From Malacoraja senta (Eukaryota), in the NCBI GenBank assembly GCA_038087875.1, contig CM075995.1, positions 2,296,001 to 2,360,000 on the forward strand: a stretch of DNA of 64,000 nucleotides, read 5' to 3'. Under the pieces are notes generated by a model. That model worked only from the letters and a program-made list of their open reading frames with translations, did no database searches and was not told the DNA's origin. The translations under genes and the position numbers were made by a program. Below are positions 671-56,029 of the stretch, piece after piece. Numbering within the stretch: the stretch's first letter is position 1; every line of letters starts with the position of its first letter.

Positions 671-924
671 AATTATCGCTTTACCATCCAAGGACAAATT
701 ATTCCTGTCCCATTGACTCACACATAAGGAAGAGGAGCAGAAGAAGCCATCAAAATGCTCTGTAATTCAATTGGAACGCGTGACATTTCGGGTCGAGACC
801 ACTGTGAAATCTCCTCAAGGTATGCCTACTTTGAAGAGGTTCTCCTCCTCTCTCCGATGAGAGCTCTGGAACATCTCTCTCACTGCTCCCCCTCTGTGAT
901 TCCTCCAGCTCTCCAGAACTACGG

Positions 925-1053
925 TCTGAAATAGGGTCTCAACCCAAAACATCACCTGTTTATTTTCTCCAGAGAATCTGCCTGTCCCGCTGAGTTACTC
1001 CAGCATTTTGTGTCTATGTTCGGTGTAAACCAGCATCTGCAGTTCCTTCCTTC
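925..1053 (+). mobile_element. Penelope 3' hammerhead module, degenerate core
   Basis: tctgaaatagggtctcaacccaaaacatcacc...gctgagttactccagcattttgtgtcta...cagcatctgcagttccttcc; homologous to the PLE 3' end at 10434-10563. Confidence 0.75.
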
Positions 1054-1336
1054 AGTAGCTCATTTCATATACCAGCCACCCTTTTTTTGGAAAAAAGTTG
1101 CCCCTCAGGTTACTTTTATACCTTCCCCCCCCATCATCTTGAACCCATATCCTCTGATTCTCAATTCCCCTACTCCAGGCAAAAGACTCTGTGCATTTAT
1201 CTGATCTATTCCTCTGATCCTATCGGAGCTGTTTCATTATCAGGAAGGAACTGCAGATGCTGGTTTACATCAAAGATAGGCACAAATTGCTCGAGTAACT
1301 CAGCGGGTCAGGCAGATTCTCTGGAGAAAATAAATA

Positions 1337-1370
1337 GGTGACGTTTCTGGTCGAGACCCTTCATCAGACT
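1337..1370 (-). ncRNA. Minimal type I hammerhead ribozyme motif (within PLE module 1243-1372)
   Basis: Reverse complement reads agtCTGATGAagggtctcgaccaGAAAcGTCacc: canonical CUGAUGA, a stem II hairpin, GAAA, palindromic ACGU and a GUC site. Confidence 0.65.
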
Positions 1371-1738
1371 CTCGTCGGAGAGAGGAGGAGAACTTCTTCA
1401 AACTCGGCATACCTTGAGGAGATTTCGCAGCGGAGCAGACATAATGTGTAAGAAGGAAAAGGGTCTTGCGTTTCTCCAGAGATGCTGCCTGACCCGCTGA
1501 GTTACTCCAGCATTTTGTGTCTATGCTCTATTATCCTACGACATATCTGATGGAATGAATGTACAATTACTGTACTAGTTTACTGACAGAACCTGAATTG
1601 GCTTCAACCTCATTCAATCCTTCACTCATCTATTATGGCCTTTAGAACATAGCTAGGTTTTCTCATTCACCATAACAGAATAAATTCCGGACAATATTTC
1701 TTGAAAGACCTGGCACCATGAGGAACTCAAAATATATT

Positions 1739-1960
1739 AGATAGACACAAAATGCTGGAGTAACTCAGCGGGACATGCAGCATCTCTGGAGAGAAGGAAT
1801 GGCTGACGTTTCGGGTCTAAACCCTTCTTCAGACTCTGAAGCAGGGTCTCGACCCCAACGGTCACCCATTCCTTCTCTCCAGAGATGCTGCATGTCCCGC
1901 TGAGTTACTTCAGCATTTTGTGTCTATCTTCGGTTTAGACCAGCATCTGCAGTTCCTTCC
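1739..1960. repeat. Palindrome of two back-to-back PLE hammerhead modules
   Basis: 1739-1834 is approximately the reverse complement of 1835-1929, centred on ttcagactctgaa. Confidence 0.85.
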
Positions 1961-2749
1961 TCCTCATAGGATATTCGATTCTGTGAAGGGTATATCTGCA
2001 TCTATCACCCTCAAGCTTGCCAGCACGGGTCAAGAGCATGCACAATATGATTATTATTTCCCTCAAGTAACATTTGCTACAATCAGAGGTAATGAAACCT
2101 TAAGTGAGTTATAGCCCGTTCAAGAAGGATTGGAAATAAAATTAATTAGCTATTGGGATTCCCAGTCCCTGGTAACTGAACGTACAATATAAAGTCCCAT
2201 TTTAGCCGTAAACCTACGAGACAGATGGGTCCCAAAACTGTACGTAAAAGCTTGATATAGAAATTGGTTGCTTTCATTGCAGAAATGTGCAGAAACAGAG
2301 AGCAATTGCTTACATAGATACATAGATACATAGACCATAGGTGCAGGAGGCCATTCGGCCCTTCGAGCCTGCACCGCCATTCAATATGATCATGGCTGAT
2401 CATCCAACTCAGTATCCCGTACCTGCCTTCTCTCCATACCCCCTCATCCCTTTAGCCACAAGGGCCACATCTAACTCCCTCTTAAATATAGCCAATGAAC
2501 TGGCCTCAACTACCCTCTGTGGCAGAGAGTTCCAGAGATTCACCACTCTCTGTGTGAAAAATCATTTTCTCATCTCTGGAAAACTTGATGTTACTATATA
2601 TTCCGCTTCTGACATTTGTCTCCCTTGCTTTATTTAATCCATGACCTGTGAGATTTTTGTTCCAGATGCAGTTTAATTCAGCTTAGTTTAGTATAGTTTA
2701 GTTCAGTTTATTGCCACGTGTGCCGAGGTACAGTGAAGAGTTTTTGTTG

Positions 2750-3765
2750 CATAGAAAATAGGTGCAGGAGGAGGCCATTCGGCCCTTCGAGCCAGCACCG
2801 CCATTCATTGTGATCATGGCTGATCGTCCCCTATCAATAACCCATGCCTGCCTTCTGCCCATATCCCTTGACTCCACTAGCCCCTAGAGCTCTATCTAAC
2901 TCTCTCTTAAATCCATCCAGTGACTTGGCCTCCACTGCCCTCTGAGGCAGGGAATTCCATAAATTCACAAATTCTCTGGGTGAAAAAGTTGTTTCTCACC
3001 TCAGTCTTAAATGACCTCCCCTTTATTCCAAGACTGTGGCCCCTGGTTCTGGACTCGCCCAACATTGGGAACATTTTTCCTGCATCTAGCTTGTCCAGTC
3101 CTTTATAATTTTATATGTTTCTATAAGATCCCCCCTCATCCTTCTAAACTCCAGTGAATACATGCTAGTCTTTTCAATCTTTCCTCATATGACAATCCCG
3201 CCATCCCAGGGATCAATCTCGTGAACCTACGCTGCATTGCCTCAATCACAAGGATGTCCTTCCTCAAATTAGGAGACCAAAACTGTACACAATACTCCAG
3301 ATGTGGTCTCACCAGAGCCCTATACAACTGCAGAAGAATCTCTTTACTCCTATACTGAAATCCTCTTGTTATGAAGGCCAACATTCCATTAGCTTTCTTC
3401 ACTGCCTGCTGTACCTGCACGCCAACTTTCAGTGACCGGTGTACAAGGACGCCCAGGTCTCGCTGCACCTCGCCCTTACCTAACCTAACCCCATTGAGAT
3501 AATAATCTGCCCCCTTGTTTTTGCCGCCAAAGTGGATAACCTCACATTTATCTATATTATACTGCATCTGCCACGCATCTGCCCACTCACTCAACCTGTC
3601 CAGGTCACCCTGCAACCCCCTAACATCCTCTTCACAGTTCACACTGCCACCCAGCTTTGTGTCATCTGCAAACTTGCCAGTGTTGCTCCTAATTCCCTCT
3701 TCCAAATCATGAATATATATGGTAAACAGTTGTGGCCCCAACACCGAGCCTTGCGGCACTCCACT
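2750..3765 (-). mobile_element. CR1 LINE, 5'-truncated (RT C-terminal half plus 3'UTR)
   Basis: ORF 3136-3759 has PQGSVLGPQLF, KFADDTKL and LYRALVRPHLEYCVQFWSP, typical CR1 ORF2 motifs. Confidence 0.92.
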
Positions 3766-4336
3766 AACTTGCGTGCTAACCAGTCAGCGGATCGAGCAAT
3801 TCGTAGTGTACAGATATACATGATAAGAGAATAACGTTTCATGCAAGGTAAAGCCAGTAAAGTCCGAGCAAAGATAGAACGAGGGTCCCGATGAGGTCGA
3901 TAGTTGCTCAGGACTGCTCTCTAGTTGCCTGATAACTGCTGGGAAGAAACTGTCCCTGATTCCGGAGGTGTGCGTTTTCATACCACTATACCTTTTGCCC
4001 GAAGGGAGAGGGCATGGATATAAAGCATGGGAACGGGCCCTTCGGCCCACAATGTTTGTGCCAAACGTGATGCCAAGTTAAACTGATCTCATCTGCCTGT
4101 ACATGATCCATATCCCTCTATTCCCTGCACTTCTTTGCACTTCCTTGCGCCTATCTAAAAGCCTCTTGAATGCCACCATTGTATCTATGGAGAGAGAGAG
4201 AAGCAAGGGACTGAGCGCACAAATCTTGAGGAGGCAGTAATGTTGCCAATGCAAATTGATTGTGGTCTGCCGATGAGGAAGTTGGGGATCCAGTTGCATA
4301 AGGAGGAGCGGAGGCCTCAGGGAATAACCGACGGGT

Positions 4337-4697
4337 GACAAAAAATGCTGGAGTAACTCAGCGGGACAGGCAGCATCTCTGGAGAGAAGAAATGGGCGAA
4401 GTTTCGGGTCGAGACCTTTCTTCGGACTGATGTCAGGGGAGAGGGAAATACATAGATAAGGAAGTGTTAGGTGTGAAAACAGGACTAAGGGGGATGGAGA
4501 TCATGGAAAATGTAGAACAGATCATTGTCAGCTGGGAGAAGGTAACAACAAAGCAAACAGTCAGACTGATCTGAGAACTGGGAGGGGGAAGGGATGGAGA
4601 GAGGGGAAAGCAAGGGTTACTTGATGTTAGAGAAGTCAATGTTCATACCGCTGGGGTGTAAGCAGCCCAAGCATAATATGAGGTGCTGTTCCTCCAA
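4337..4697 (-). mobile_element. Penelope-like element 3' fragment (ORF C-terminus, 3'UTR, hammerhead module), second subfamily
   Basis: Minus strand encodes LEEQHLILCLGCLHPSGMNIDFSNIK*, matching LEEMHLIFRLGSLHPGGLNIEFSQFC* of ORF 9753-10319, followed by the hammerhead module. Confidence 0.85.
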
Positions 4698-5843
4698 GGG
4701 AATAACGTTTACTGCACGATAACGTCAAGTAAACTCCGATTAAAGATAGTCTGATGTTGTTTAATGAAGCAGGTAGTAGCAGGTAGTACCTTCTCCCAGC
4801 TAGCAATAGACAATAGGTGCAGGAGTAGGCCATTCGGCCCTTCGAGCCAGCACCCCGGTTCAGAACCAGCAGGATTGCACTCGCTAATGGTCTGTTATGG
4901 AGGTAGGCAATTTGAGCGGGTTCAGGTCAAGAACCAGAGGACATAGGTCTAAGGTGCGAGGGGAAGCATTCAATGGAAACTTTGTGGGTTTATGGAACGA
5001 GTTGTCAGAGTTGAAACAGGAACTATAACAAATATTAAAATACATTCGGACAGGTACATGGATAGGAAAGGTTTAGAGGGATATGGGCCAAACATGGGCA
5101 GGTAGGACTACTGTAGATGGGACATCTTTGTCGGCGTGGGGAAAATCGTGCAGAAGAGCCTTTTTCCCAACGATAGACACAAAATGCCGGAGTAACTCAG
5201 CAGGTCAGGAGGCAGCTATGGAGAAAAGGAATAGGTGACATTTCGGGTTGAGACCCTTCTTCAGACACAAGCATCAAGCATCAAGTGGCCTTTTTTTCCA
5301 TACTGTAAGACTCTATGACTGAGACAAAGGTGAATGTGCATCATAACCAATGTCTTAAAGCTCTTCATCACAACGGACGCAAGTTCCACCGGTCGGTAGT
5401 TGTTGAGGCACGTCAATGGATACATTTAAGCCAAGATAGATTCTTGATTAGTACATGTGTCAGAGGTTATGGGGAGAAGGCAGGAGAATTGGGTTAGGAG
5501 GGAGAGATAGATCAGCCGAGATTGAATGGCGGAGTAGACTTGATGGGCCAAACGGCCTAATTCTGCTCCTATCACTTAACACTTATGACTTCCTCTCCTG
5601 GAAGATATCCTCTTAAACCAGGTGGGCTCCTCAGCCCATAGTAGTGAAAGGTTGAAGATGTCCGTGAAAACACCAGCAAGTTGGTCTGCGTAGGTTTTAA
5701 GAATGCGGCCAGCTACACCACCAGGGCCAAACGCTTCCCAGGGGTTCACTCTCATGAAGGGTCGGCCTAGGAGAATGAGGTCCCAATGTCACTGGGGGAC
5801 GTGGGGGCCTGTAAAAATACACCATCCTTCTCCCTTTTGAAGT

Positions 5844-6270
5844 GGCACAGTGGTGCAGCGGTAGAGTTGCTGCCTTACAGCGCCGGAAACACAGGTTCGG
5901 TCATGACTACGGGTGCTGTCTATGCAGAGTTCGTACGTTCTCCCCGTGACCTGCGTGGGTTTTTCTCCGGGTGCTCCAGTTTCCTCCCACACTCCAAAGA
6001 CGTACAAGTTTGTAGGTTAATTGGCTTCGGTAAAATTGTAAAGTGTGTAGTATAGTGCTCGTGTATTTTACACTTGTTTTATTCTATTCTTTTTAATGAC
6101 TGTTTTCAATTACTTTTGATTGCTTTTTAATGCTTTGTGTAAAGCACTTTGAATTGCCTTGTTGCTGAAGTGTGCTATATAAATAAACTTGCTTGCTTGC
6201 TAGTGTTGATCGCCGGTCGGCGTGGACTCGGTGGGCCGAAGGGCCTGTTTCCGCGCTCTTATCTCTAAAG
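5844..6270 (+). mobile_element. tRNA-derived V-SINE (HE1-like) with an L2-type tail inserted at ~6070-6200
   Basis: A-box-like tggtgcagcgg, B-box-like ggttcggtc, V-domain gagttcgtacgttctccccgtg, tail gggccgaagggcctgtttcc. Confidence 0.8.
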
Positions 6271-7150
6271 TCAAAAGTCTCAAGTTGAAGTGTGCATAGA
6301 AACCACTGTACCCGTCCATATGCACATGTGGCTGATGTTCGTACGATGTAAATACATACTATTTTTCTCAGTCTGATAGGTAGGAGTTCAAGGAGTTTCC
6401 TACAGGAACAGAAAAGGTTTGGGTCTCAGCGATACAGAGAGCAGGGGTAGAGCTCGTTTCTGATATTCGGACTGATTTCCTGTCTGTGCCTGACCAATAT
6501 TTCACATATATTATGCGCTGGTCACAGGGTTTTAGATGTGTACATTTGATGCGAGAACCTCTATCTCATGATATGCCATCAATTACTACTCGTAATCAAT
6601 TACCCTCCTTAATTCACTTCAGTGGTGCTTCCAGTAAATAGCTTGTACTCTAGAACTGAATTTCTCAGACTACATCTCAGCAACCAACCCATTTCCTTGA
6701 AAAGAATCATATGAAAGATTTTGGCATCGCTGGTGTGAACTTATATTCCAGTTAATAAAAAGCTGGAATCGTTTCCACCTCAGCTTTCCCATGAAGTTTT
6801 TCCAAGCTTACTGTCTGTAAAAAGCTTTGTAAATGGAATGCGTTCAGTGTCCATATCCACACATGTTATCACCCTCCCTGCAGCTCTGGAAAGAGAACGT
6901 TCACCAGGCAAGTTATTCCATTGCTTTTGGGAGATAAGATAAAATATATTCAGCTTTGTCAGAATTAAGTGGAATTCTAGATCTGTGATTAGATTCAAAC
7001 AGCACAGAAACTGGTACTTCGGCCCAACCTGGACATGCCGACCAAGATGCCCCATCTACACTAGTCCCACCTGCCCGCATTTGGCCCATATCCTTCCAAA
7101 TCGTTCCTGTCCATGTACCTATCTACCTCTTTGGTGACCCTCGGACTATC

Positions 7151-7241
7151 TGAAGAAGGGTCTCGACCCGATACGTCACCCATTCCTTCTCTCCAGAGAT
7201 GCTGCCTGTCGCGCTGAGTTACTCCGGCTTTCTGTGTCTAT
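7151..7241 (+). mobile_element. TSD-flanked ~91-bp hammerhead mini-element inside a Rex1-type tail
   Basis: 12-bp direct repeat cctcggactatc at 7139-7150 and 7242-7253 flanks (c)tgaagaagggtctcgacccgatacgtcacc...tgtgtctat. Confidence 0.8.
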
Positions 7242-8862
7242 CCTCGGACTATCCTTGATCGGACTTTGCTGGCTTTACGTTGCACTAAACATTATTTCCT
7301 TATCATGTATCTATACACTGTAAATGGCTCGATTGCAAACATGAAAGTACACAGCAAAACCTTTTCAATGTACCTCGGTACACGTGACAATAGAATGAAC
7401 TGTAAACAGTAAACGGCAAACTAAACTGTAAACTAAACTGTAAACTATACCGTCCGACATCGCCGTCGCACTGGGCCCACCGAACATCACAGCCGCACCC
7501 GGTCCTCCCAACATCGCCGCCGCACTGGGCCCATCCAGCATCGCCGCCGGACCAGGCCTACTCTACACGACCGCCGGACCGGGGCTCCCCGAACATGGCC
7601 GCCGCACCGCACCCTATTCACCCCATCGCCTCACCGGGCTGGTCGAACCGCGCCGCCCCACCGACCATCCACCTACCGGGAACTTCCACGCATCGCCCGT
7701 GGACCCCGACCATCGGGTCCGCCGACCCTCGCCACTGCAACGCCCCCCAGCCCCCCCGACTCCACTGCCCGAGGACTCCTACCGTCAGGTCCGCCGACCC
7801 TCGCCACTGCACCTCCCTCCAGCAGCCCGCAGCCGTCGCCTCACCTGCAGACTGGTCTCTGTACTGGGCTTGAAGCCTCCACGCTGCTCACTCCCACTCT
7901 CCTGGGTTTGACTCCACTGGGTCCTAGCGCTAGTCTGCCTAGATCGGATTACCTCCGTGTTAGTTCCACTGATTCTTCCCCATCCTTCTACAACTATGGG
8001 ACCCCTTCTCTTCCACACCCACACTACAGCCCTCTCACCCCCCCACCCCCTGAACACCCACCACCCCCCACCACCACATCGGCCTCGTCCCCATTCCACC
8101 CACCTGCCATCCTCCAGCCCCAACCCCCATCCCTGCCGGGTGTTCACCATCCCCCCGACCTCCCCCTCTCCGACATCGAACGGTCTGTCCTCAGCAGAGG
8201 TCTTACCTTTGTCCCCTCCGTCCCCACCTCAATGAGTTCCGTGCCCTCCATGACTTGGAACGCTTCTACCGTCGCCTCCGCCTCACAGCTCACTTCCATG
8301 GGAAGGAGTCCTCGCTCCCCACTGATGACCCCTTTTCCCGTCTCCCACGCACCCCCTCCTCATGGAACCCCCCTCGTAGCCTTCCGGCTTTAGAGCTCTT
8401 CATTCAAAACTGCCGCCGTGACATCAACCGCCTCAACTTCTCCACTCCCCTGTCTCACTCCAATCTCTCCCCCCCTGAACGCACTGCCATCGACTCACTC
8501 CGCAACAACCTAGATTGGGTTATCAAACCCGCCGACAAGGGAGGTGCCGTGGTAGTCTGGCGCGTCGATCTCTACAAAGCTGAGGCCACGCGCCAACTCT
8601 CGGACACCTCCTCCTACTTACCCCTGGACCATGACCTCACTGACGAGCACCAGGCCACCATCTCCAGCACCATCACCGACTTCATCCACTCCACGCCCTG
8701 CCCGACCGAGCCTCCAACCTCATCGTTCCCCAGCCCCGCACAGCCCGCTTTTACCTTCTCCCCAAAATCCACAAACTTGACTGTCCCGGTAGACCCATTG
8801 TCTCTGCCTGTTCGTGCCCCACCGAACTCATCTCCACCTACCTCGACTCCATCCTATCCCCC

Positions 8863-9714
8863 TTGGTTAAATCCCTCACCACCTATGTTCAAGACACCTC
8901 AGACACTCTCCGTCGTCTCCGCGCATTCCACTCTCTAGGCCCTCACCCCCTCATCTTCACCATGGACGTCCAGTCATTGTACACCTCCATCCCCCACCAG
9001 GATAGTCTCGAAGCCCTCCATTTTTTTCTCGACCGTAGAAGCAACCTATACCCGGCCACTGACACCCTCCTCCGCCTAGCGGAGCTGGTCCTTACACTTA
9101 ATAACTTTTCATTTGATTCCTCCCATTTCCTCCAAATACAAGGCGTAGCTATGGGCACACGCATGGGCCCCAGCTACGCATGCCTCTTTGTCGGGTACGT
9201 AGAACAATCCTTGTTCAATGCGTACCAGGGCCCCATCCCCGACCTCTACCTCCGCTACATCGATGATTGTTTTGGTGCCACATCCTGCACCCACACACAA
9301 CTGACTGACTTCATCCGCTTCACCACCAACTTCCATCCGGCACTCAAGTACACCTGGACCATTTCCGACACTTCCCTACCATTCCTTGACCTCACTATCT
9401 CCATCGAAGGTGATAGACTCCTTACCGACATCCACTACAAACCCACCGACTCCCATGGCTATCTGGACTACACTTCTTCCCACCCTGCTTCCTGTAAGGA
9501 CTCCATCCCCCACTCCCAATTCCCCTGTCTACGCCGCATCTGCTCCCAGGATGAGGCGTTCCACACCAGGGCATCTGAAATGTCCTCATTCTTCAGGGAA
9601 CGGGGGTTCCCCTCCTCCACCATAGATGAGGCTCGCACCAGGGTCTCTGCCATACCCCGCAACACTGCTCTCTCTCCCCATCCTCCCACTCACAACAAGG
9701 GCAGAGTCCCCTAG
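8863..9714 (+). pseudogene. PLE reverse transcriptase domain (ORF fragment)
   Basis: FTMDVQSLYTSI, QIQGVAMGTRMGPSYA, LRYIDD and LPFLDL; frameshifts on both sides. Confidence 0.9.
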
Positions 9715-9752
9715 TCCTCACCTTTCACCCCACCAGCCGTCACATACAACAA

Positions 9753-10319
9753 GTGATCCTCCGTCAGTTTCGCCACCTCCAACGTGACCCCACCACTCGC
9801 CACATCTTCCCATCTCCCCCCATGTCTGCCTTCTGCAAAGACCGCTCCCTCCGTAACTCCCTTGTCAATTCTTCCCTTCCCTCCCACACCACCCCCTCCC
9901 CTGGTACTTTCCCTTGCAACCGCAAGAGATGCAACACTTGTCCCTTCACCTCCCCCCTCGACTCCATTCAAGGACCCAAGCAGTCGTTCCAGGTGCGACA
10001 GAGGTTCACCTGCATCTCCTCCAACCTCATCTATTGCATCCGCTGCTCTAGATGCCAGCTGATCTACATCGGTGAGACCAAGCGGAGGCTTGGCGATCGT
10101 TTCGCCGAACACCTCCGGTCGGTCCGCAAAAACCAACTTGACCTCCCGGTGGCTCAGCACTTCAACTCCCCCTCCCATTCCATATCTGACCTCTCTCTCC
10201 TGGGTCTCCTCCATGGCCACAGCGAGCAACACCGTAAATTGGAGGAAATGCACCTCATATTCCGCTTGGGCAGTCTACATCCTGGGGGCTTGAACATTGA
10301 ATTCTCCCAATTCTGTTAG
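9753..10319 (+). pseudogene. PLE Cys linker plus GIY-YIG endonuclease (ORF fragment)
   Basis: CNRKRCNTC; NLIYCIRCSRC..IYIGETKRRLGDRFAEH; VAQHFN; terminal PGGLN. Confidence 0.9.
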
Positions 10320-10433
10320 CCCTTGCTGTCCCCTCCCCTTCATCAGCCCTCTGGTTGTCTCCTCCCCTCCCCCAGCCCTCAGGCTCCTCCTCCGCCTTTT
10401 TCCTTTTTTCCTTTCTTCTCCCCACCCCCTATC

Positions 10434-10467
10434 AGTCTGAAGAAGGGTTTCGGCCCGAAATGTTACC
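10434..10467 (+). ncRNA. Hammerhead ribozyme motif in the PLE 3' terminal region (slightly decayed)
   Basis: agtCTGAAGAa-gggt-ttcg-gccc-GAAAtGTTacc; stem II is capped by a UUCG loop. Confidence 0.6.
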
Positions 10468-10602
10468 TATTTCCTTCGCTCCATAGATGCTGCTGCACCC
10501 GCTGAGTTTCTCCAGCATTTTTGTGTACCTTCAATTTCCAGCATCTGCAGTTCCTTCTTAAACACTGTAAACTATACCTGTCCGAATGTGTTTTAAATGT
10601 TA

Positions 10603-19847: not shown

Positions 19848-22110
19848 TACCTGTTTTTGCTACCAAAGTGGATAACCTCACATTTATCCACGTTACACTG
19901 CATCTGCCATGCATCTGCCCCACTCACCTAACCTGTGCAAGATCCTCATAGCATCCTCCTCACAGTTCACATTGCCACCCACCCTTGTGTCATTTGCTAA
20001 TTTGCTAATGTTACATGTAATCCCTTCATCTAAATCATTAATATATATTGTAAATAGCTGCAGTCCCAGCACTGAGCCTTGCAGTACCCCACTAGTCACT
20101 GCCTGCCATTCTGAAAGGGACCCATTAATCCCTACTCTTTGTTTCCTCTCTGCCAACCACTTCTCTATCCATGTCAGCACTCTGCCCCCAATACCATGTG
20201 CCCTAATTTTTCCCACTAATCTCCTATGTGGGACCTTATCAAATGCTTTCTGAAAGTCCAGGTACACTACACCCACTGGCGCTCCCTTGTCCATTATCCT
20301 TGTTACATCCTCAAAAAATTCCAGAAGATTAGTCAAGCATGATTTCCCCTTTGTAAATCCATGCTGACTCGGACCGATCCTGTTACTGCTATCCAAATGT
20401 GTGGCTATTTAATCTTTTATGATTGACTCCAGCATCTTCCCCACCACCGATGTCAGGCTAACTGGTCTATAATTCCCTGTTTGCTCTCTCCCGCCCTTCT
20501 TAAAAAGTGGGATAACATTAGCTACCCTCCAATCCATAGGAATTAATCCTGAATCTATTGAACATTGGAAAATTATCACCAATGCGTCCATGATTTCTAG
20601 AGCCACTTCCTTAAGTACCCTGGGATGCAGACCATCAGGCCCTGGGGATTTATCAGTCTTCAGTACCATCAGTCTATCCAACACCATTTCCTGCCTAATG
20701 TGGATTTCCTTCAGTTCCTCCGTCACCCCAGACCCTCTGGCCACTACTATATCAGGAAGATTGTTTGTGTCCTCCTTAGTGAAGACAGGTCCAAAGTAAC
20801 TGTTCAACTGTCATTTCCTTGTTCCCCATAATAAATTCAACCTTTTCAGCCTTCAGGGGTCCAACTTTGGTCTTAACTAATTTCTTCCTCTTCACATACC
20901 TAAAGAAGCTTTTACTATCCTCCTTTATATTCTTGGCTAGCTTACCTTCGTACCTCACCTTTTCTCCCCATGTTGTCTTTTTTAGTTATCTTCTGTTGCT
21001 CTTTAAACTTTACCCAATCCTCTGGCTTCCTGCTCATCTTTGCTACGTTGTATTTCTTCTCTTTTATTTTTATACTGTCCCTGACGTCCCTAGTCAGCCA
21101 CGGTCGCCCCTTACTCCCCTTGGAATATTTCTTCCTCTTTGGAATGGACTGATCCTGCACCTTCTGTATTATTCCCAAAATACCTGCCATTGTTGTTCCA
21201 CTGTCATCCCTGCTAGGGTATCTTTCTCGTCAACTTTGGCCAGTTACTCCCTCATGGCTCCATGGTCCCCTTTATTCAACTGTAATACTTCATCTCAGAT
21301 TTACCCTTCTCCCTATCAAATTGTAGATTAAAACTTACCATATTATGGTCACTACCTCCCAATGGCTCCTTAACCTCAAGTTCCCTTATCAAATCTGGTT
21401 CATTACACAACACTAAATCCAGAATTGCCTGCTCCCTGGTAGGCTCCAGTACAAGCTGCTCTAAGAATCCATCACGGAGGCACTCCACAAACTCGCTTTC
21501 TTGAGGTCCAGTACCAACCTGATTTTCCCAGTCTACCTGCATGTTAAAATCTCCCATAACAACCATAGCATTACCTTTACGACATGCCAATTTTAACTCT
21601 TGATTCAACTTGCACCCTATATCCAGGCTACTGTTTGAGGGGCCTGTAGATAAGTCCCATTAGGGTATTTTTACCCTTACAATTCCTTAGATCTATCCAT
21701 ACTGACTCCAGAACTCCTGTTTCAATGTCACCCCTTGCAAGGGACTGAATTTCATTCCTCACCAACAGAGCTACCCCACCCCCTCTTCCCATCTGTCTGT
21801 CTTTTCGATAGGATGTATATCATTGAATATTCAGTTCCCAGCCCTGGCCCTCTTGCAGCCATGTCTCTGTAATTCCCACAACATCATACTGCCAATTTCT
21901 AACTGAGCCTCAAGCTCGTCCACTTTATTCGCGCATTCATATACAACACTTTGACTTTGGTATTCACCTCCCCTCTCACTCCGGTCCCCATTGGCCCTGA
22001 CCTTACTCTCTTATCCCTTCTCGAACTTTCCTTCCCATTAATTCGGGAGTCTTTTGTAACATTTCCTGTACTCACTTCCCCTTTAACTCCATCTATTATA
22101 CTCCCAATTT
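19848..22110 (-). mobile_element. CR1 LINE ORF2 (APE endonuclease plus RT), disrupted
   Basis: VLYMNAR, VMGDFN, ILDLVL and GGSDHN (APE); KSPGPDG, NYRPVSLTS, QHGF..GKSCLTNL, YLDFQKAFD and QGSVLG (RT), spread across frameshifted ORFs. Confidence 0.93.
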
Positions 22111-23966: not shown

Positions 23967-25949
23967 GAGATGGAGTCAAGGGCCCACACCATCAGTGTTT
24001 TGCCTGATGGTCTGGGCTCTATCAATATGCTGCAGCTTGCATGTTGACTGCATTAGCTAAATGTGGAGTAGGTATACAATTCTGGGCACAATAGCATGTC
24101 ACAGACAGTCATAAATAAAATAAATGGCCTATCAAATTGATTGCAGCCTTCATCACACATTAATAGGCAGTAAAGCAATCATCGTTCCTTTATTTCTCGT
24201 TTGAGGACTGCAGTGTCACTCTTTCTGTTAACTTTTAAAGGGTGAGTAAGCTTCATTTTTATTTTGGGCTTTTTTTCAATTTTTGTAATTAAACTGTTTC
24301 CTGGCCTCAGAACTTATTCCTACCTTGCACTGCTCCCTCTCATATCATGTTGAAACTAAGAACTGCTGATGAAATGCATAGGGAGGAACTGCAGATACTG
24401 GTTTACACCGAAGATAGACACAAAATGCTGGAGTAACTCAGGGGGACAGGCAGCATCTCTGGATAGAAGGAATGGGTGACGTTTCGGGTCGAGACCCATC
24501 TTCCGACTGAGAGTCAGGGGAGAGGGAGACACAGATATAAGGGAAGTGTAAGGCGTGAAAACAAGACCTCAAACGGGATGAAGCTCAAGAACTGCAGATG
24601 CTGGGTTATAAAAAAGAGACACAAAGTGCTGGAGTAACTCAGCAGGTCAGGCAGCATCTGTGGAAAACAAGAACAGGTGACATTTCTGGTTGGGACCATT
24701 ATTCAGACTACTTGTGGTTTTATTTCCCCTCTTATACCATCCTGGACATGTTTGCTCATGCAGTACAATGACACATCTGCCCCAGTCTCTGGTGTCGTGT
24801 CTCAATGGATTTATCCAATTATCAATGTGGTCAATGAGTCATGGAGTCACGGGAGAATCGTTACCTTCTTCTTTTCCTTCCTCAATGTTTAATTGAGGAC
24901 CGGGTATTTCTCCTGCTCCCTCCACCATGCACCATTTCAACCCCTAACTTTAATCGCCTTAATCAGGAAGCCACACATCTATGCAGTCACAGTGAGGACA
25001 CAATGGGCAATTCATCAGCACGATTATCTTGGACGGGATCAGGAGAATCTCCATTGAATCATACACTAGTTATAGAGTCATAGAATCATAGAGGTGATAT
25101 GGTGTGGAAACAGGCCCTTCAGCCCAACTTGCCCACACCGGCCGACATGTCCCTTCTACACTAGTCCACCAGCCTGCATTTGGCCCATATCCCTCTAAGG
25201 AATAGTGAAAGGCTTGGATAGAGTAGATGTGGAGAGGATGTTTCCACTCGTGGGAGAGTCTAGGACCAGAGGTCATCGCCTCAGAATTAAAGGACGTTCT
25301 TTTAGAAGATGAGGAGGAATTTCTTTAGTCAGAGGGCGGTGAATCTGTGGAATTCTTCGCTACAGAAGGCTGTGGCGGCCGTCAGTGGATATAATTAAGG
25401 CAGAGATAGATAGATTCTTGATCAGTACAGGTGTCAGAGGTTATGGGGAGAAGGCAGGAGAATGGCGTTAGGAGGAGAGATGGATCAGCCATGATTGAAT
25501 GACGGATTAGACTTGAAAGGCCAAATGGCCTAATTCTGCTCCTATCACTTATGATCCTATGATCATATGATATAAACCTATCCTATCCATCTACCTGTCT
25601 AACTGTTTCTTAAACGTTGCAATAATATTTGCCTCAACTACCTCTTCCGGCAGTTCATTACATACACATACCACCCTTTGTATGAACCCCTCAGATCCCA
25701 ATTAAATCTTTCCCCCTTCACCTTAAACCTATGTCCTCTGGTTCTCGATTCTCCTCCTCTGAGCTAGTGACTCTGTGCGTCCACCCGATCTATTCCCCTC
25801 ATGATTTTGTACACCTCCATGAGCTCACCCCTCATCCTCCTGCACTCCTAGGAATAGAATCCTAGTCTGCTCGACCTCTCCCTATAGCTCAAGTCCTGGC
25901 AACGTCCTCTTAAATCTTCTCTGCAGCCTTACATTACCTATTATATCAC

Positions 25950-26156
25950 TTCTCTAATTTCAGGTAGTCCCTGCTTTCTCCTCCCCTTCTCAGCTCTCCC
26001 TCAGCCCACTGTCTCCGCCTCTTCCTTTCTTCTTCCCGCAACCCCCCCCCCACACCCTCCCATCAGTCTGAAGAAGGGTCTCGATCCGAAACATTGCCTA
26101 TTTCCTTCGCTCCATAGATGCTGCCTCACCCGCTGAGTTTCTCCAGCATTTTTGTC
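25950..26156 (+). mobile_element. PLE 3' fragment with hammerhead module
   Basis: ORF end FSNFR*, pyrimidine-rich UTR, then ctgaagaagggtctcgatccgaaacattg; 15-bp TSD tacctattatatcac at 25935-25949 and 26157-26171. Confidence 0.85.
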
Positions 26157-26656
26157 TACCTATTATATCACCAAGGTAAGTTGCAGCTTTGTTGTTGCAA
26201 ACAGAAGGATCAGAGTCGATTGTAAATGTCATCACATTTCAAAGTAAATAGTAAGAAGATAAAATAATTTTGCCTTTGCACTTCAGATTCAATACACAGA
26301 GTTTTTAGCTATCTTTTACGTTGTACACTATCTTTTACATTGTCTCATTATTAGTTATTTAAGGCCCTGTCCTACTTTCCCGAGTTACTCACAAATTCTC
26401 CCGAGTCTTCCCCTTGATTCGAACTCGGAGAATTACGGTAATAGCCGTTCGTAGGTACTCGGGGCTATTTTTTTTACTCGTGGACATTTTTCAACATTTT
26501 GATTTCAATTAGTCTGTAATTTTGAATGAATAATGTTGTTGTAAAGAAAGAAATTGTTGCATGATTATGGTCACAGCAGAACTATCAACTCTCTTGAGAA
26601 CTCAGTCAACATGTGAACGGAGTGAGAATCTGTGATGAGTGATGAGGCTTGCCATT

Positions 26657-28296: not shown

Positions 28297-28433
28297 GTTT
28301 AAGAAGGAACTGTAGATGCTGGAAAATCGAAGGTAGACAAAAATGCTGGAGAAACTCAGCGGGTGAGGCAACATCTATGGAGCGAAGGAAATAGGCAACG
28401 TTTCGGGTCGAGACACTTCTTCAGACACTAATC
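28297..28433 (-). mobile_element. TSD-flanked hammerhead mini-element
   Basis: 13-bp TSD tcttggactttaa at 28284-28296 and 28434-28446; minus strand reads ctgaagaagtgtctcgacccgaaacgttgcc. Confidence 0.8.
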
Positions 28434-41961: not shown

Positions 41962-42868
41962 GTAATGCTTTATTATTAATGAGAAAGAGTACGATCATTT
42001 CTCTCACACTAATTAGAGTTTTCATGACTCAGTTTGGTAAATGCAGGCCAGTGGGACATGTTGGTCGGTGTGGGCAAGTTGGTCCGCAGAGCCAGTTTCC
42101 ACACTGTATGACTGTGACTCCATGTTTTTTTTCCGCTTGCACCAAATATCGTAACTGATAGATAGAAATGCTCAAAGAACAAAATAAAGGCTGTTTTTCA
42201 GGTCATTCCCAACAGGGCACTGGAGATTAATCTTCAGTTCCCGGAAGCTAGAGGTCAGTCCAGGAAATAGGTAAGCCCTGAGCTTTTGTTGGAGATGTGT
42301 TAGTTCAAGTTCAAGTTCACATTTATTGTCACATGCACTAATTAAGGTACAGTGATATTTGAGTTACCATATGGCCGTACAAGTAAGAAAAAGAACGCAA
42401 TACACAATAATTTTAACATAAACATCCACCACAGTGGAATCAACATTCCTCACTGTGAAGGAAGGCAATAACGTTCAGTTATCTTCCTCCTTTGTTCACC
42501 CGTGGTGGTCGGGGCCTTGAACCCTCAGCACTGCCTCTGCCGACGGCCTGATGTTAAAGCCCTCTCATCGGGATGATGGAGACTCTGGCGTCGGGACAGA
42601 ATGGAAACACTCCACGGCTTGGAGCTCCCGAGTCGGCCTTTTCTTATCTGCACGGTGTTAAAGTCCACAAGCCCCGTGGTCGGAGCACTTCCGCAGCGAT
42701 GAAGGTGAATTGGAAATACATCAGTGGTTTCAACATGATAGTGCCAGGATGCTGGGGTAGAAATGGATAAGCACAATCTAATTATCATGAATACTTTTAC
42801 ACACTTTTTAAAACATAGATTCAGATATTCAAACATTTCCACCGTTCCACCAATTATTCAAACTGAAT

Positions 42869-43635
42869 AGATTATTATCTAAATGGTGTCAAGTTGGGAA
42901 AAGGGGAAGTACAACAGGATCTGGGGGTCCTTGTTCATCAGTCAATGAAAGTAAGCATGCAGGTACAGCAGGCAGTGAAGAAAGCTAATGGCATGTTGGC
43001 CTTTATAACAAGAGGAGTTGAGTATAGGATCAAAGAGGCCCTTCTGCAGTTGTACAGGGCCCTAGTGAGACCATACCTGGAGTATTGTGTGCAGTTTTGG
43101 TCTCCAAATTTGAGGAAAGACATTCTTGCTATTGAGGGAGTGCAGCGTAGGTTCACAAGGTTAATTCCCGGGATGGCGGGACTGTCATATGCTGAGAGAA
43201 TGGAGCGGCTGGGCTTGTACACTCTGGAATTTAGAAGGATGAGAAACATCTTATTGAAACATATAAGATTATTAAGGGTTTGGACACGTTAGAGGCAGGA
43301 AACATGTTCCCGATGTTGGGGGAGTCCAGAACCAGGGGCCACAGTTTAAGAATAAGGGGTAAGCCATTTAGAACGGAGATGAGAAAACACTTTTTCACAC
43401 AGAGAGTTGTGAGTCTGTGGAATTCTCTGCCTCGATGGAGGCCGGTTCTCTGGATACTTTCAAGAGAGAGCTAGATAGGGCTCTTAAAGATAGCGGAGTC
43501 AGGGGATATGGGGAGAAGGCAGGAACGGGGTACTGATTGGGTATGATCAGCCATGATCACATTGAATGGCGGTGCTGGCTCGAGGGGCCGAATGGCCTAC
43601 TCCTGCACCTATTGTCTATTGTCTATTGTCTATTG
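42869..43635 (+). mobile_element. CR1 LINE 3' fragment
   Basis: DLGVLVH...KKANGMLAFITRG...VRPYLEYCVQFWSP plus tail. Confidence 0.9.
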
Positions 43636-44215
43636 AATAATGGTTTTCCAGTTATTTCTGCCAAACTTTCTGTAAAAGATAAACGTTTAAAGATCTTTGA
43701 AAAAGATCAAAAATGTGGAGAGCCTGGCCAGCAATCCTCTGTCCAGCCACCTACAATCTTTGTGTCTGCTCATGAGAGTGCAGGCGGACAGTGGGATGTA
43801 GAGGAACAGCTCCACATGGCTTAACTATTTTTATTTAACCAGAGGTATAAGCCTCGTCAAATAAAAATACCTTAAAAAGAGGAAAAACAAAACAAATAAG
43901 TGGTTACCCACACGTTGCAATAAAGCAGCAGTCGCATAATATTCAGGGAAGATGTGCCAGGAGAGTTGATTTTGACCGAATGATTGTATGATGTGGAGGA
44001 AGGAACTGCAGGTGCTGGTTTACGACAACGATAGACACAAAAAAGCTGGTGCAACTCAGCGGGTCAGGCGGCATGTGTAGGAAAGAACTGCAGATGCTGA
44101 TTTAAATCGAAGGTAGACACAAAATGCTGAGATAACTCAGTGGGACAGGCAGCATCTCTGGAGAGAAGGAATGGGTGACGTTTCGGGTCGAAAGTCTGAC
44201 TCAAGTTCGGATCGA

Positions 44216-44251
44216 GAGTCTGAAGAAGGGTCTCGACCCGAAACGTCACTC
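44216..44251 (+). ncRNA. Best-preserved minimal type I hammerhead ribozyme motif
   Basis: GAGT-CTGAAGA-A-GGGT(CTCG)ACCC-GAAA-C-GTC-ACTC: 4-bp stem I GAGU/ACUC, stem II, palindromic ACGU stem III; predicted cleavage after C44247. Confidence 0.72.
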
Positions 44252-44794
44252 ATTCCTTCTCTCCAGAGATGCTGCCCGTCTCGCTGAGTTACTCCAGCAT
44301 TTTGTGTCTATGGTTGTATGATGTGGCAACCAAGGTAATGACCTGTGGTTGTGTTTGATGCAAGCCCCTTTCCGCTACACTTCCCTTACAACAGCCATTT
44401 TCCCTTACAAGCAATACAACAGCCATTTTCATTTTGTAACCTTGCCTTTAGTGATTGTCTCATGAGTCTACCACCTTGCTAATGACTAACAATATTAATT
44501 TGCACCTTAATGTGACAAACCATATCAATGTGCGTCCAACAATGATTTGTTTTGGATGATTTCAGCGTGATGTGCAATGGGATTAGATTTGGATTGCTCG
44601 TGTGAAAGCTGGTGGAAGTGTAAACTTGTTTGGTTTTCTGTTTTCTGTTGGGACTTGCTCAGTCTCTTTCTCATTCCTCATTCCTGCAGGCTGGATGAAG
44701 CAATTCACCTCATTAGACCCCCACCTCAATCTACAAACCGTCCAATTACAATTACAATTAACACTTAGATAGACACAAAAAGCTGGAGTAACTC

Positions 44795-46362: not shown

Positions 46363-47924
46363 AAACGGGTCAGACAGCATCTCTGGAGAAAAAGAATTAG
46401 GTGACGTTTCAGGTCGAGACCCTTTGAGTTACTCTAGCTTGTTGTGTCTATCTCTGGTTTAAACCGGCAGCTGCAGTTCCTTCCTATACAATTACCACTT
46501 ACTTGGTTGAGAACCATAGGGTTAATGGTAAGCATATAGCTCTTCGATATAAGCAGCTGCTAAATTAACATGTATTGCTAATTATGGTTAGAAACTACAA
46601 TGCATTGCTAATTGTGCTTTCCATAACACAGAATGATATAGCATTAGAGTCATAAGAGTCTCTGGAAACAGGTCCTTTGGCTCAACCTGCCCACACCGGC
46701 CAACATGTACCATCTACACTTGTCCCACCTGCCTGCGTTGGCCCATATATCACTCTAAACCAGGCCTATCCATATGGGTACCTGCCTAAATGTTTCTTAA
46801 ATGTTACGATAGTGCCTGCCTCAACTATCTCCTCCGGCAGCTCGTTCCATACACCCACCATTCATTGTGTGAAAAAGGTACACCTCAGGTTCCTATTAAA
46901 TCTTTCTCCCCTCACCTTAAAGCTATGTCCTCTGGTGCTCGATTCCCCTACTCTGGGCAAGAGGCTCTGTGCGTCTACCCGATCTATTCCTCCCATGATT
47001 TTGTACACCTCTAAAAGATCACCCCTCATCCTCCTGCAACACGACCTCCCAACTTCTATACTCAATACTCTGACTGATGAAGGCCAATGTGCCCAAAGCC
47101 TTTTTGACCACTTTGGCCTTCATCAGTCATGGAGAAGATAAAATACATACCAGAGACGTTTAGATAGCATAGAGATATTCAGGGAATTGATGAATATGGA
47201 TGATGTGCAGGCGGATAGGTGGTGGTCTTGGCATCATGTTCGGCATCGACATTGTGGGCTGAAGGACCTGTTCTTGTGCTGTATTGTTTTATCTAGAATT
47301 CGGTGGTTAATACTATCAGGAAAAAGTGAGCAGGATTAGCCACTTTATTTTGGACCAGAGAGGGGGTGGGGGTGACCTGCCTCGAGCCTTTGAGATTCTG
47401 GGATTTGCTGGATACGATTTCGAGAAGGGATACCTATAAAATAATCGGGACAGATTATTTTAGCCAAAGAGCGATTATAATGTGAAACTTGCTGCAAGAT
47501 GGTGCAGTGAGGGTCGGCACAGTGGCACAGCTGCTGGAGCTGTACAGCGCTGGAGACAAAGTTCGATCCTGACCAGGGGTGCTGTCTGTGTGGAGTTTGC
47601 ACCTTCTCCCTGTGACCTTGTGGGTTTCCTCCGGGTGATCCAGTTTCCTCCCACATCCCAAAGAAGTGCGGCTTTGTAAGTTAATTGGCCCTATGTAAAT
47701 TGCCCCGAATGTGTTGGAAGCAGAGGGTGAAGTAGGATAACATAGGATGAGTACGAACGGGTGACCGATGGCTGGTGGACCGAAGGAACTGTTCCCATGC
47801 TGTATCTCGAAACTAAACTGAAGTTCAATTGAATAGTGTAGATGCCTTTGAGGAAGAAAGCGCAAGAGAAAGTAAGGTGCAGAGGAATCTGTTGATGATA
47901 CAACCTAGAGCATTGGAGTATTTG

Positions 47925-48114
47925 AAGATAGACATAAAATGCTGGAGTAACTCAGCGGGACAGGCAGCATCTCTGGTTAAAAGGAATGGGTACTGTTTAG
48001 GTCGAGACCTTTCTTCAGACTGAAGGAGGGTCTCAACCCGAAAGGTCGCCCATTCCTTCTCTCCAGAGATGCTGCCTGTCCGGCTGAGTTACTCCAGCAC
48101 ATTGTGTCTATCTT
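47925..48114. repeat. Palindrome of two back-to-back hammerhead modules
   Basis: Centred on cttcagactgaag at ~48019. Confidence 0.8.
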
Positions 48115-50653
48115 TGGTATAAACGAGCATCTGCAGTTCCTTCCTTCCTTCACATGGGAGGATTTGAATCTGGTTAGCAAGTCCAAAAGTGGATAGGATT
48201 GTTGACAAATCTCAAGATTGCAGCTGGTTGTGGAGGCATCATGCAGTCAACACTTAAAGTATTAAAACTTAATCGAACGTTTACCACAAATTAAGCTGGC
48301 CAAATTATTTAATATGTCGTCATCACGGATTGCTGCAGTAAACAATAGAAACACCAACAGACATTTCTGTCAATAATTTTGATAAAATGACTTCTTATAT
48401 CTTTTTTTTTTAATATTTTAATCTGATAATCTTTGCATCCCTGACCAGAATAGTCAACAAATCTTAAGATAGACACATTCCGAAGAAGGGCCTCCACACA
48501 AAAGTCACCCATTCTTTCATTCCAGAGACGTTGCCTGTCCCGCTGATTTACTCCAGCATTTTAGGCAATAAACAATAGACAATAGACAATAGGTGCAGGA
48601 GTAGGCTATTCGGCCCTTCGAGCCAGCACCGCCATTCCATATGATCACGGCTGATCATCCACAATCAGTACCCCATTCCTGCCTTCTCGCCATATCTCCT
48701 GACTCCGGTATCTTTAAGAGCTCTATCTAACTCTCTCTTGAAAGCATCCAGAGAATTGGCCTCCACAGATTCACAACTCTCTGGGTGAAAAAGTTTTTCC
48801 TCATCTCCGTTCTAAATGGCCTCCCCCTAATTCTTAAACAGTGGCCGCTGGTTCTGGATTCCCCCAACATCGGGAACATGTTTCCTGCCTCTAGCGTGTC
48901 TTTGTGTCTATCTTCGGTGCTAACCGGTATCTGCAGTTCCTTCTTACACAGCAACCAGTTTTCCTTCCTACACATGAGTCAACAATCTGTTTTATTAGAG
49001 AGGGGTGGGCGCCTGGAACATGCTGTCAATGGTGGAAGCAGATACAATCGCATTTCAAAAGCTTTTGGATAGGCACGTGGACGTGCAGGGAGTGGAGGGA
49101 TATGTATCACGTGCAGTCAAATGAGATTAATTTAACTTGGCATCATGTTTCCATGTGCACATTGTGGGCCGAAGGACATTTTACTGAGCAGGACTGTTCT
49201 ATGTGAGTCTCATAATAATAAAAAGTACAGGAGCAAGTTTACACTTCCACCAGCTTTCACACGAGCAACTCAAATCTAATCCCATTGCACATCACGCTGA
49301 AATCATCCAAAACAAATCATTGTTGGACGCACATTGATATGGTTTGTCACATTAAGGTGCAAATTAATATTTTTAGTCATTAGCAAGGTGGTAGACTCAT
49401 GAGACAATCACTAAAGTCATGGTTACAAAATTAAATTGGCTGTTGTACTGCTTATATACACGAGATACAACCTGGAGCATTGGAGTATTTGATGATAGAC
49501 ACAAAATGCTGAAGTAACTCAGCGGGACAGGCAGCATCTCTGGAGAGAAGGAATGGGTGACGTTTTGGGTCGAGACCCTTCTTCAAACTGAAGGAGGGTC
49601 CCGAGCCAAAATGTCACCCATTCCTTCGTTTTGGGTCGAGACCCTTCTTCAAGCTGAAGGAGGGTCTCGAGCCGAAATGTCACCCTTTCCTTCTCTCCAG
49701 AGATGCTGCCTGTCTGGCTGAGTTACTCCAGCATTTTGTGTCTATCCTTCTTACACAGCAACTCGTTTTCCTTCCCACACACTAGCCAACAAATCTGTTT
49801 TGCTAGAGAGAGGTGGGTGCCTGGAACATGCTGCCAATGGTGGAGGCAGATTCAAAAGCTTTTAAAATGCTTTTGGATAGGCACATGGACATGCAGGGGG
49901 GAGTGGATGGATAAGAATCACATGCAGGCAGATGAGATTAGTTTAACCTGGCTTCATGTTTTCGCATGGACATAGTCGAATAGTGACCGGCTTGGAAAGA
50001 GTGGATGTGGTGAGGATGTTTCCACTTGTGAACTGTACACTGCAAGGGCCAGAAAGCGAGCGGGCAAGTTTATCTCTGACCCCTCTCACCCTGGCCACAA
50101 ACTCTTTGAATCACTTCCCTCTGGAAGGCGACTCCAGACTGTCAAAGCTGCCACAGCCAGACATAAAAACAGTTTTTATCCACGAGTAGTTGCTCTACTC
50201 ATCAGCCAAAAGTCTGTAGCCTCCCTTTGATCTGGTATCATGCTTGATCAATGGTGTTTTATCATTAATGTTTTATTATTATTAAGTTTTCTGAGTCATT
50301 CGTAACAGTCACTATATGTCATGTTGTTACTTGTGGGCGGAGCACCAAGGCAAATTCCTTGTATGTGAATACTTGGCCAATAAGCTTACTTACTTACTTA
50401 CTTACTTACTTTGTGGAAGAGTCTAGGACTAGACTCAGAATTGGCAGGAGATGAGAAGGAATGTCAGAGGGTGGTGAATCTGTGGAATTCTTTGTCACAG
50501 AAGGCTGTGGAGGCCGTCAATGGATATTTTAAAGGCAGAGATAGACAGGTTCTTGATTAGTACGGGTGATAGGGGAAATGGGGAGAAGGCAGGAGAATGG
50601 GTTTAGGAGGAAAAGATAGATCAGCCATGATTGCATGGGGGAGTAGACCACCT

Positions 50654-55417: not shown

Positions 55418-56029
55418 TAAGGGTGTCAGGGGTTATGGGGCAAAGGCAGGAGAATGGAATTGAGAGGGGAAGATAGATCAGCCATGATTAAATGACAGAG
55501 TTGACTTGATGGGTCGAATGGCCTAATTCTGCTCCTAGAACTAATGAACTAAACTAAGCTGCTGTGCTGAAATTGAAACTCGCAGCTCTGGATCACTAGT
55601 CCATTTTTCCAATTGCTAGTGCATAAACCTTACTCCTATTTTACTGTAGGCTGAGATAGACAGCCAGTGAAAGCCATGGCCTGTTAACATACCCTTAGAA
55701 CAGATGGTTAACTCATCAAATATACCACCGGGCTGATCTACCAAAGGTTACAATTTGAACATTTGAAAACAATTATTTTTAAACTAATGGGTGGGAGAAA
55801 CAAAAATACCTTGGCAAAGGGTTTCCACAGAGCTGGGCCCACTCCAGACTCGGATCAGCCTTGACGAAAATCACTCCAATTATGTGGACATGCTGAATTA
55901 TTTCTTTCCCACCATAAATGCTGAAAAATGCTGGAAGCACTCGGCAAGTCAAACAGCGTCTGTGGAACGAAACACAAAGGTCATGTTCCCGGTTGGAAAG
56001 TGGGAAAGAGAGAAAGATCATCTTAAATT

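Follow-up and report, generated by a model that had tools for sequence, protein, structure and literature searches.

Hammerhead-bearing ends of Penelope-like elements form an abundant short repeat in Malacoraja senta, and many copies may be run-off cDNAs

A Penelope-like element (PLE) lies at 7452-10564 in a stretch of 64,000 nucleotides of Malacoraja senta (assembly GCA_038087875.1, contig CM075995.1, positions 2,296,001 to 2,360,000 of the forward strand), which is called the window here. The element ends in a hammerhead ribozyme motif, and the terminal module of about 130 bp carrying this motif recurs over the window in short copies. What are these short repeats, and how did they come to be inserted? 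An earlier note on the window had regarded them as a SINE-like (short interspersed nuclear element) and retrozyme-like system. Sequence comparison indicates instead that they are very probably 95-135-bp ends of several PLE families and neither a SINE nor a retrozyme, and they are inserted by a PLE protein. With a probability of about 0.55, many of these PLE ends are run-off cDNAs primed inside the module near a capped RNA start at TCAGT.

All 20 sites listed for the module in the earlier note were found to be homologous to the last 130 bp of the element, the last of them mapping to 52797-52913. A profile built from 18 window copies gave 37 matches in the window, 270 in 600 kb (the main sample, 60 evenly spaced 10-kb stretches of large contigs) and 0 in reversed sequence; 20 further stretches gave 76. 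Extrapolated to the whole genome, the first sample yields 0.87 million copies (bootstrap 0.69-1.07 million), occupying 4.2% of bases; the pooled samples yield about 0.84 million copies. One family-specific 26-mer has 34,767 exact matches genome-wide, against 0 for the control. The very high copy number that had been claimed is thus borne out, and a single 130-bp ribozyme module makes up about 4% of this genome.

The 3' ends of the copies fall at +90 to +95 or at +120 to +131 from the core C of the hammerhead, two points about 34 nt apart. Arms of head-to-head pairs make up 98 of the 245 sampled copies and are joined at palindromes; among 66 adjacent pairs, 36 combine a tailed with a tail-less arm, 2 have two tails, 11 have two tail-less arms and 17 were left unresolved. 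Target-site duplications of at least 8 bp were found at 16 of 26 solo edge copies (those starting at the ribozyme edge defined below), compared with 1.7% of 650 control pairings. A module lies 90-371 nt downstream of 82 of 93 endonuclease ends, and both main module types are found there. The common short type differs from the module of the window element and follows endonuclease DNA of other PLE families. The window itself has such a copy at 4326-4430, where about 197 nt separate the end of an endonuclease C-terminus (64% amino acid identity) from the ribozyme downstream of it. Edge copies, inverted copies and copies linked to the 3' untranslated region (UTR) are found for each of the five module types. 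Each type thus stands also behind PLE UTR or endonuclease DNA, which upholds the view of the repeats as PLE termini that a PLE protein has inserted and of a ribozyme module common to element and repeats.

The short copies do not form a subfamily of their own, being no closer to one another than to UTR-linked copies. Of 128 edge copies, 42-46 had another edge copy as their nearest neighbour and 49-55 had a UTR-linked one. In about 460 column tests between short copies and their partners, two columns differ at p<0.005; one adjoins the truncation edge and the other belongs to a group with biased sampling. Tandem Repeats Finder (TRF) detected no tandem arrays of complete ribozyme units in 664 kb (0.03% of the genome), its overlaps with the module there being five stutters of 34-66 bp in 2-3 copies each. 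No pol III small-RNA head was seen, as the target-site duplications abut the module and Rfam gave no match. The unit ends also lie away from ribozyme cleavage, the 5' ends about 30 nt upstream and the 3' ends 65-100 nt downstream. Because arrays and a subfamily are lacking in these samples and the module types are shared with endonuclease-linked copies, the SINE or retrozyme reading is unsupported for the bulk of the repeats; rare retrozyme arrays may be present elsewhere in the genome.

The 5' ends of the copies carry the argument about their origin. The edge is the TCAGT stretch that immediately precedes the ribozyme, and the edge fractions rest on samples. Of the 245 sampled copies, 95 start within TCAGTCTG; a further 109 have their start within the module, and 41 extend as far as the UTR or endonuclease, the UTR being judged by homology or pyrimidine content. 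For family A, consecutive copies on one contig (n=70, from 76 anchors minus segmental and overlapping duplicates) gave 30 edge starts, between -6 and +7 of the core C, 22 passing the edge and 18 inside. A replicate on the solo copies of a fresh 273 kb gave 41 edge, 21 UTR and 14 inside. A different result was obtained for cDNAs which cross the open reading frame (ORF): at 30 loci chosen for an intact ORF start, 1 ends at the edge, 20 pass it and 9 end earlier. Edge starts therefore account for 30/52 short copies and 1/21 ORF-crossing cDNAs (Fisher p 1.7e-5). In 1.17 Mb the commonest bin is the A of TCAGT (-3), with 23 of 117 edge ends. Just before these -3 ends, 13/23 copies have G at a position that is C in the template (expected 23%, p 6e-4), and at 27 resolved junctions all four single extra bases are G. 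An extra G has been explained as cap copying at full-length L1 insertion junctions (PMC11702581).

If the short repeats are taken as PLE termini, the edge is somewhat more probably than otherwise the place where the reverse transcriptase (RT) ran off an RNA 5' end. Transcription would start at or near the A of TCAGT, and the capped transcript would carry at its 5' end the module and the post-tail protein-binding region. The PLE protein would nick the target and prime on the 5' module at one of two internal sites. The GIY-YIG endonuclease makes a nick in each strand, and synthesis by RT begins at two internal positions (PMC11167929), the latter of which would account for the optional tail. After some 95 or 130 nt RT would run off the RNA and leave a solo copy; with both strands primed, two cDNAs joined at palindromes would give an inverted pair. 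Read-through or circular RNA, which has no end at the edge, would be the source of long and tandem copies. We infer where transcription starts, that the protein primes on the 5' module and that there are two template classes. It is a more tentative idea that several hundred thousand short insertions are strong-stop-like by-products and that end-less RNAs supply the long and tandem copies. If it is true, the genome records a PLE start site at base resolution and separates linear from circular templates, which would allow a direct test of the purpose of the PLE hammerhead.

Several observations weigh against a run-off at a capped start. The ends are spread over 14 nt, from -6 to +7, and do not fall on one base. 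In the replicate the top bins are -5 (9) and -1 (7), with only 5 ends at -3. The excess of G is post hoc; the replicate gave 3/5 (p 0.09) together with a lone extra A, a resolved target-site duplication abuts none of the 13 G cases, and T precedes the G in 6 of the 13, as in the template. More than 1/21 ORF-containing copies would be expected to end at the edge if RNA commonly began there, so read-through or circular templates must be assumed. In Drosophila virilis, Penelope has its start away from the ribozyme edge, 46 nt upstream of an intron that at its 3' end adjoins stem I (PMC2377424, PMC4209133). A single start site for all RNAs was considered and is excluded by the ORF-crossing copies. 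Separately, 6 of 16 mapped upstream ends of ORF-crossing copies cluster at the equivalent of window positions 10070-10128, in the endonuclease region; a second RNA start could lie there, or the ends could stem from shared events.

An unlikely explanation, though the strongest of the alternatives, is that the repeats are PLE ends at which RT was halted early, at the edge, by a bound factor (e.g. splicing factors) or by a fold, on an RNA that continues beyond this point. A polypyrimidine tract followed by CAG stands at the edge in every family, the ends are scattered over about 14 nt, many junctions show microhomology, and the intron of D. virilis Penelope has its 3' end at stem I (PMC4209133). 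However, the identical sequence halts just 1/21 ORF-crossing cDNAs, solo truncation inside the module is not high (52/245 over about 100 nt), and the extra G is left unexplained. A predicted pairing of core GAAG with tail CUUC (L144:1333-1560), which would sequester the core, was rejected (z -0.22, no compensatory change). Nor does core-tail pairing serve as the cause of the edge stops, which are not limited to tail-less copies.

It is improbable that the template end is made by RNA processing, that is by splicing- or ribozyme-related cutting, with ribozyme circles giving the tandem copies. In its favour, most non-A families have a donor-like AG/GTAG or AA/GTAA across their stop codon, head-to-tail arrays with a period of 3.9-4.0 kb are common, and in six permuted copies the ORF start adjoins the UTR or edge. 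Beside the predicted cleavage (+28), 4 of the 76 family-A anchors start at +29 or +30 (window-equivalent 10466-10467, 1-2 nt past cleavage) and 0 at +31 to +44, the 14 nt that follow, which hints faintly at cleaved templates. Against these points, none of the 82 endonuclease-module links is spliced, by which removal of the UTR as an intron was rejected as the source of the edge. Moreover, the target-site duplications abut the 5' ends and leave no upstream exon, the main pile-up lies about 30 nt upstream of the cleavage site, and ribozyme mutants still insert in vitro (PMC11167929). The weakest alternative, a non-autonomous SINE-like or retrozyme-like module with its own transcription and self-cleavage that is mobilised in trans by the PLE protein, can look attractive for the discrete 5' and 3' ends, target-site duplications and copy number of the repeats, for a plausible internal promoter and for tandem retrozymes in the sole chondrichthyan sampled by Li et al. 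(bioRxiv 10.64898/2026.07.22.740005), but it is largely refuted for the bulk of copies by the lack of arrays of complete units in 664 kb and of a separate subfamily, by an intact ribozyme in only 31/270 sampled copies, by the presence of the ribozyme 5' half where a cleaved monomer would start after GUH, and by the absence from solo copies of the post-tail sequence required by the anole PLE protein (PMC11167929).

The signals at the edge deserve mention in their own right. TCAGTCT appears to match the initiator consensus. In non-A families (e.g. L099, L119, L066) the donor-like site at the stop codon is accompanied by a polypyrimidine-CAG acceptor at the ribozyme edge, and from this pair of sites the UTR may be a PLE intron. 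The permuted copies contain 60-140 nt of post-tail ORF start, then directly the ribozyme edge or UTR, and then the module; joints of this type likewise occur in contigs of related organisms. They suggest template jumping or small circular templates. Back-splicing was rejected for them, as the unpermuted sequence has no GT after the junction and microhomology fits better.

Is the motif a real ribozyme? At 10437-10464 it consists of CTGAAGA, an extra A, a GGGT/GCCC stem with TTCG loop, GAAA and TGTT, which is where the earlier note had placed it, and a tail of about 100 nt follows and reaches 10564. The UUCG loop and GUU site are specific to the family of the window element; most copies have a CUCG loop and GUC. 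The minimal PLE hammerhead is described with an intact core, an extra base between 9 and 10.1, G10.1-C11.1 and a palindromic 15.2-16.2 (PMC4209133). The core and the fit to this descriptor agree with the claimed minimal type I hammerhead, but the palindromic stem III is imperfect in the window copy, since it has T instead of C at 10461. An Rfam scan gave no hammerhead match at E<=10, and the identification rests on the published descriptor. The core pattern has 8 matches in the window against 0.86 in shuffles, 7 of the 8 inside the module. Folding programs do not predict the hammerhead fold beyond stem II in monomer or dimer, as expected of a minimal motif.

Endonuclease-linked copies were sorted roughly by UTR length and identity into five PLE groups, whose UTRs range from 85 to 340 nt and differ in sequence between families. 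Across these groups the core columns are identical (11/11), TCAGT likewise, compared with 41/52 downstream columns. In decayed copies the mismatch is 4.9% in the core and 7.7% in the flank (p 0.002), a modest excess. Stem covariation, which the earlier note had proposed as a check, is not seen in this genome, where stem I has 2 bp and the changes in stems I and II affect one strand only (U-A to U-G), but it does appear in distant PLEs. In a set of 80 metagenome loci whose proteins are relatives with 33-63% identity, the hammerhead pattern occurs 16 times on the sense strand and 2 times on the antisense strand, with G-C at 10.1-11.1 in 16/16 and the extra A in 15/16. Stem I, which lies outside the search pattern, averages 3.6 bp there versus 0.95 with shuffled partners (0/5000), with four pair types at its first position. 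The strict pattern was found in 6 of 29 distant loci with enough post-endonuclease sequence. An invariant core across five groups and apparent covariation in distant PLEs argue for a genuine conserved PLE ribozyme, at the weak end of the range.

The hammerhead is intact in 6 of the 37 window matches, the others having a broken core (14), a stem defect (2) or a truncation (15). G12 and stem III, which fall within CpG sites, are mutated in about 30%. The hammerhead is conserved in master elements, where it is probably weak and protein-assisted, and is a decaying passenger in the inserted copies. Metazoan minimal hammerhead ribozymes (PMC4209133) are alike in core, extra base, G10.1-C11.1, palindrome and their occurrence mostly as single motifs of truncated PLEs. 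Stem I of 2 bp resembles that of D. virilis and stem II has 4 bp, whereas Schistosoma has 4-5 and 7-8 bp for stems I and II. Intact-looking copies number about 1e5 here by extrapolation, compared with 4,000-9,000 for coelacanth and Xenopus; the main text of that survey names no shark or ray.

The window element supports its assignment as a PLE with RT, GIY-YIG and terminal hammerhead, with its end at 10564. The RT domain (PF00078, 8644-9714) scored E 9e-7, just under the curated cut-off, and the GIY-YIG domain (PF01541, 9630-10319) scored at the cut-off. Compared with a natural intact relative with a 1225-codon open frame (L031; 95% nucleotide identity), it lacks about 280 N-terminal codons of the 1225 and the 5' pseudo-long terminal repeat (pLTR), and has indels near 7706 (50-nt insertion), 8070-8082, 8157, 8217, 8693 and 9708. 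In full elements the optional tail sequence continues into the ORF start. The family is young, its 150 best endonuclease matches all being at least 90% identical; among the 150 best N-terminal matches, 24 fall within open frames of at least 1200 amino acids, and some intact-ORF copies sit in head-to-tail arrays of the period given above. The nearest named protein relatives belong to sharks and rays (63-72% identity), which fits the cartilaginous-fish host named in the earlier note.

The features of endonuclease-containing (EN+) PLEs are present: a single ORF with RT and C-terminal GIY-YIG, a pLTR recognised from partial tandems, inverted 5' copies and an optional tail of 30-40 bp. The intact ORF has ADKGG (DKG), the linker CNRKRCNTC (CX4CX2C), and CIRCSRC with two histidines (CCHH), and these, with the C-terminal endonuclease, agree with the Neptune features in PMC8557442 (linker CX2-5CxxC, CCHH, DKG). 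The linker between RT and endonuclease is assigned to Neptune and Nematis (PMC8557442), and vertebrates have only Neptune and Poseidon according to Li et al. (bioRxiv 10.64898/2026.07.22.740005). Poseidon is without the linker, so the element is classified from its motifs, by elimination, as a Neptune-type EN+ PLE, and the protein proposed earlier stands. It shares with Neptune-clade elements (PMC8557442) the domain order and motifs above, 5' truncation, partial tandems, the inverted 5' copy, the tail and the pLTR hammerhead, and differs in an ORF of about 1210 amino acids with a long low-complexity N-terminal part and in module copies near a million. Coordinates are collected in the table.

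Table. Features of the window element and of module copies
Feature	Position	Strand	Remark
Left target-site duplication, 15 bp, ACTGTAAACTATACC	7437..7451	+	Repeated at 10564-10578
PLE ORF, 5'-truncated and frameshifted: RT, CX4CX2C linker, GIY-YIG/CCHH endonuclease	7452..10319	+	
Pyrimidine-rich 3' UTR	10320..10431	+	85-340 nt in other families
TCAGT: stem I 5' strand; initiator-like, 3'-splice-site-like; 5'-end hot spot of short copies	10432..10436	+	
Minimal type I hammerhead, 2-bp stem I, predicted cleavage after 10464	10437..10466	+	Fits PMC4209133
Hammerhead subparts	core 10437-10443; extra A 10444; stem II 10445-10456; GAAA 10457-10460	+	
Conserved pLTR segment, closing at first 3' end point (tail-less copies)	10467..10530	+	
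Optional PLE tail, about 34 nt, closing at second 3' end point	10531..10564	+	
Right target-site duplication copy	10564..10578	+	Repeat of 7437-7451
Permuted copy	799-1052	+	Post-tail ORF start joined to edge or UTR
Permuted copy	1240-1441	-	Post-tail ORF start joined to edge or UTR
Head-to-head inverted pair, tail-less and tailed arm, joined at TCAG(T/A)CTGA quasi-palindrome	1734..1962	.	
End of longer PLE copy, other family	4326..4630	-	Had been listed as short repeat
Solo tail-less module, 12-bp target-site duplication, broken core	7148..7251	+	
Two modules: UTR-linked 24376-24510, edge-start 24587-24710; both cores broken	24376..24710	-	
UTR-linked tail-less module	26063..26175	+	
Solo tailed module, edge start, intact hammerhead, 13-bp target-site duplication	28297..28427	-	
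Inverted pair and partial extra arm	43993..44316	.	
Inverted pair, edge-joined	47922..48145	.	
Inverted pair, 66-bp internal duplication at junction	49489..49780	.	
Permuted copies	L090, L069, L216, L113		Post-tail ORF start joined to edge or UTR

Much of this picture has precedents. Minimal PLE hammerheads and their spread as truncated single copies are already published, so that this genome is an extreme example and not a new system: single minimal hammerheads have been described as probable truncated PLEs (PMC4209133), and solo pLTRs with palindromic junctions are known as well (PMC3846280). The Penelope of the rotifer Adineta vaga (PMC3846280) has solo pLTRs, palindromic inverted junctions, target-site duplications and an initiator-like TCACT in its pLTR; its solo pLTRs are rare and partly ascribed to deletion, whereas here they are very abundant and have their own duplications. 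In Poseidon PAc of Anolis (PMC11167929) two internal RT start sites likewise define the tail, and the distance from stem II to the tail end is 111-118 nt as against about 119 nt here. PAc belongs to another clade and has its first ATG inside the ribozyme, whereas here the first ATG comes about 37 nt downstream of the tail. The text consulted on PAc mentions no pile-up of 5' ends at the edge of the ribozyme.

Non-LTR (long terminal repeat) retrozymes (PMC7229834; bioRxiv 10.64898/2026.07.22.740005) are also non-coding, pLTR-related and probably moved by a PLE protein, and have a type I hammerhead. Their defining feature is tandem units each with a complete hammerhead (PMC7229834; Li et al.); the units are 150-450 bp and expressed as circles, whereas the repeats here are 95-135 bp long, stand singly or in inverted pairs, and have a minimal ribozyme that is mostly dead. 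Arrays of host DNA with a period of 2-2.5 kb and one solo module per unit were observed at G000:C1:3870000-4030000 (L210, L214), and similar arrays with wider spacing and one solo module each in G000:C235. These are segmental repeats of host DNA and not retrozymes.

Searches of the open-access literature, which did not extend to Repbase or Dfam, found neither this repeat described for a shark or ray nor an account of the edge pile-up. The useful part of the present data is the 5'-end pile-up and its contrast with the ORF-crossing cDNAs; a young family with many intact ORFs and some 35,000 exact 26-mer copies offers a sharp test of the place where the RNA starts and of the templates that are copied.

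Two minor observations may be added. The window has many decayed LINE-type (long interspersed nuclear element) RT fragments, at 3136-3783, 19893-21659, 42867-43292, 44900-45454 and 55788-56597, which are presumably CR1/L2-like. In one further PLE copy (L032:424-2923) the 3' UTR has grown into a 2.5-kb minisatellite of 29-39-bp units which extends from the stop codon to the ribozyme.

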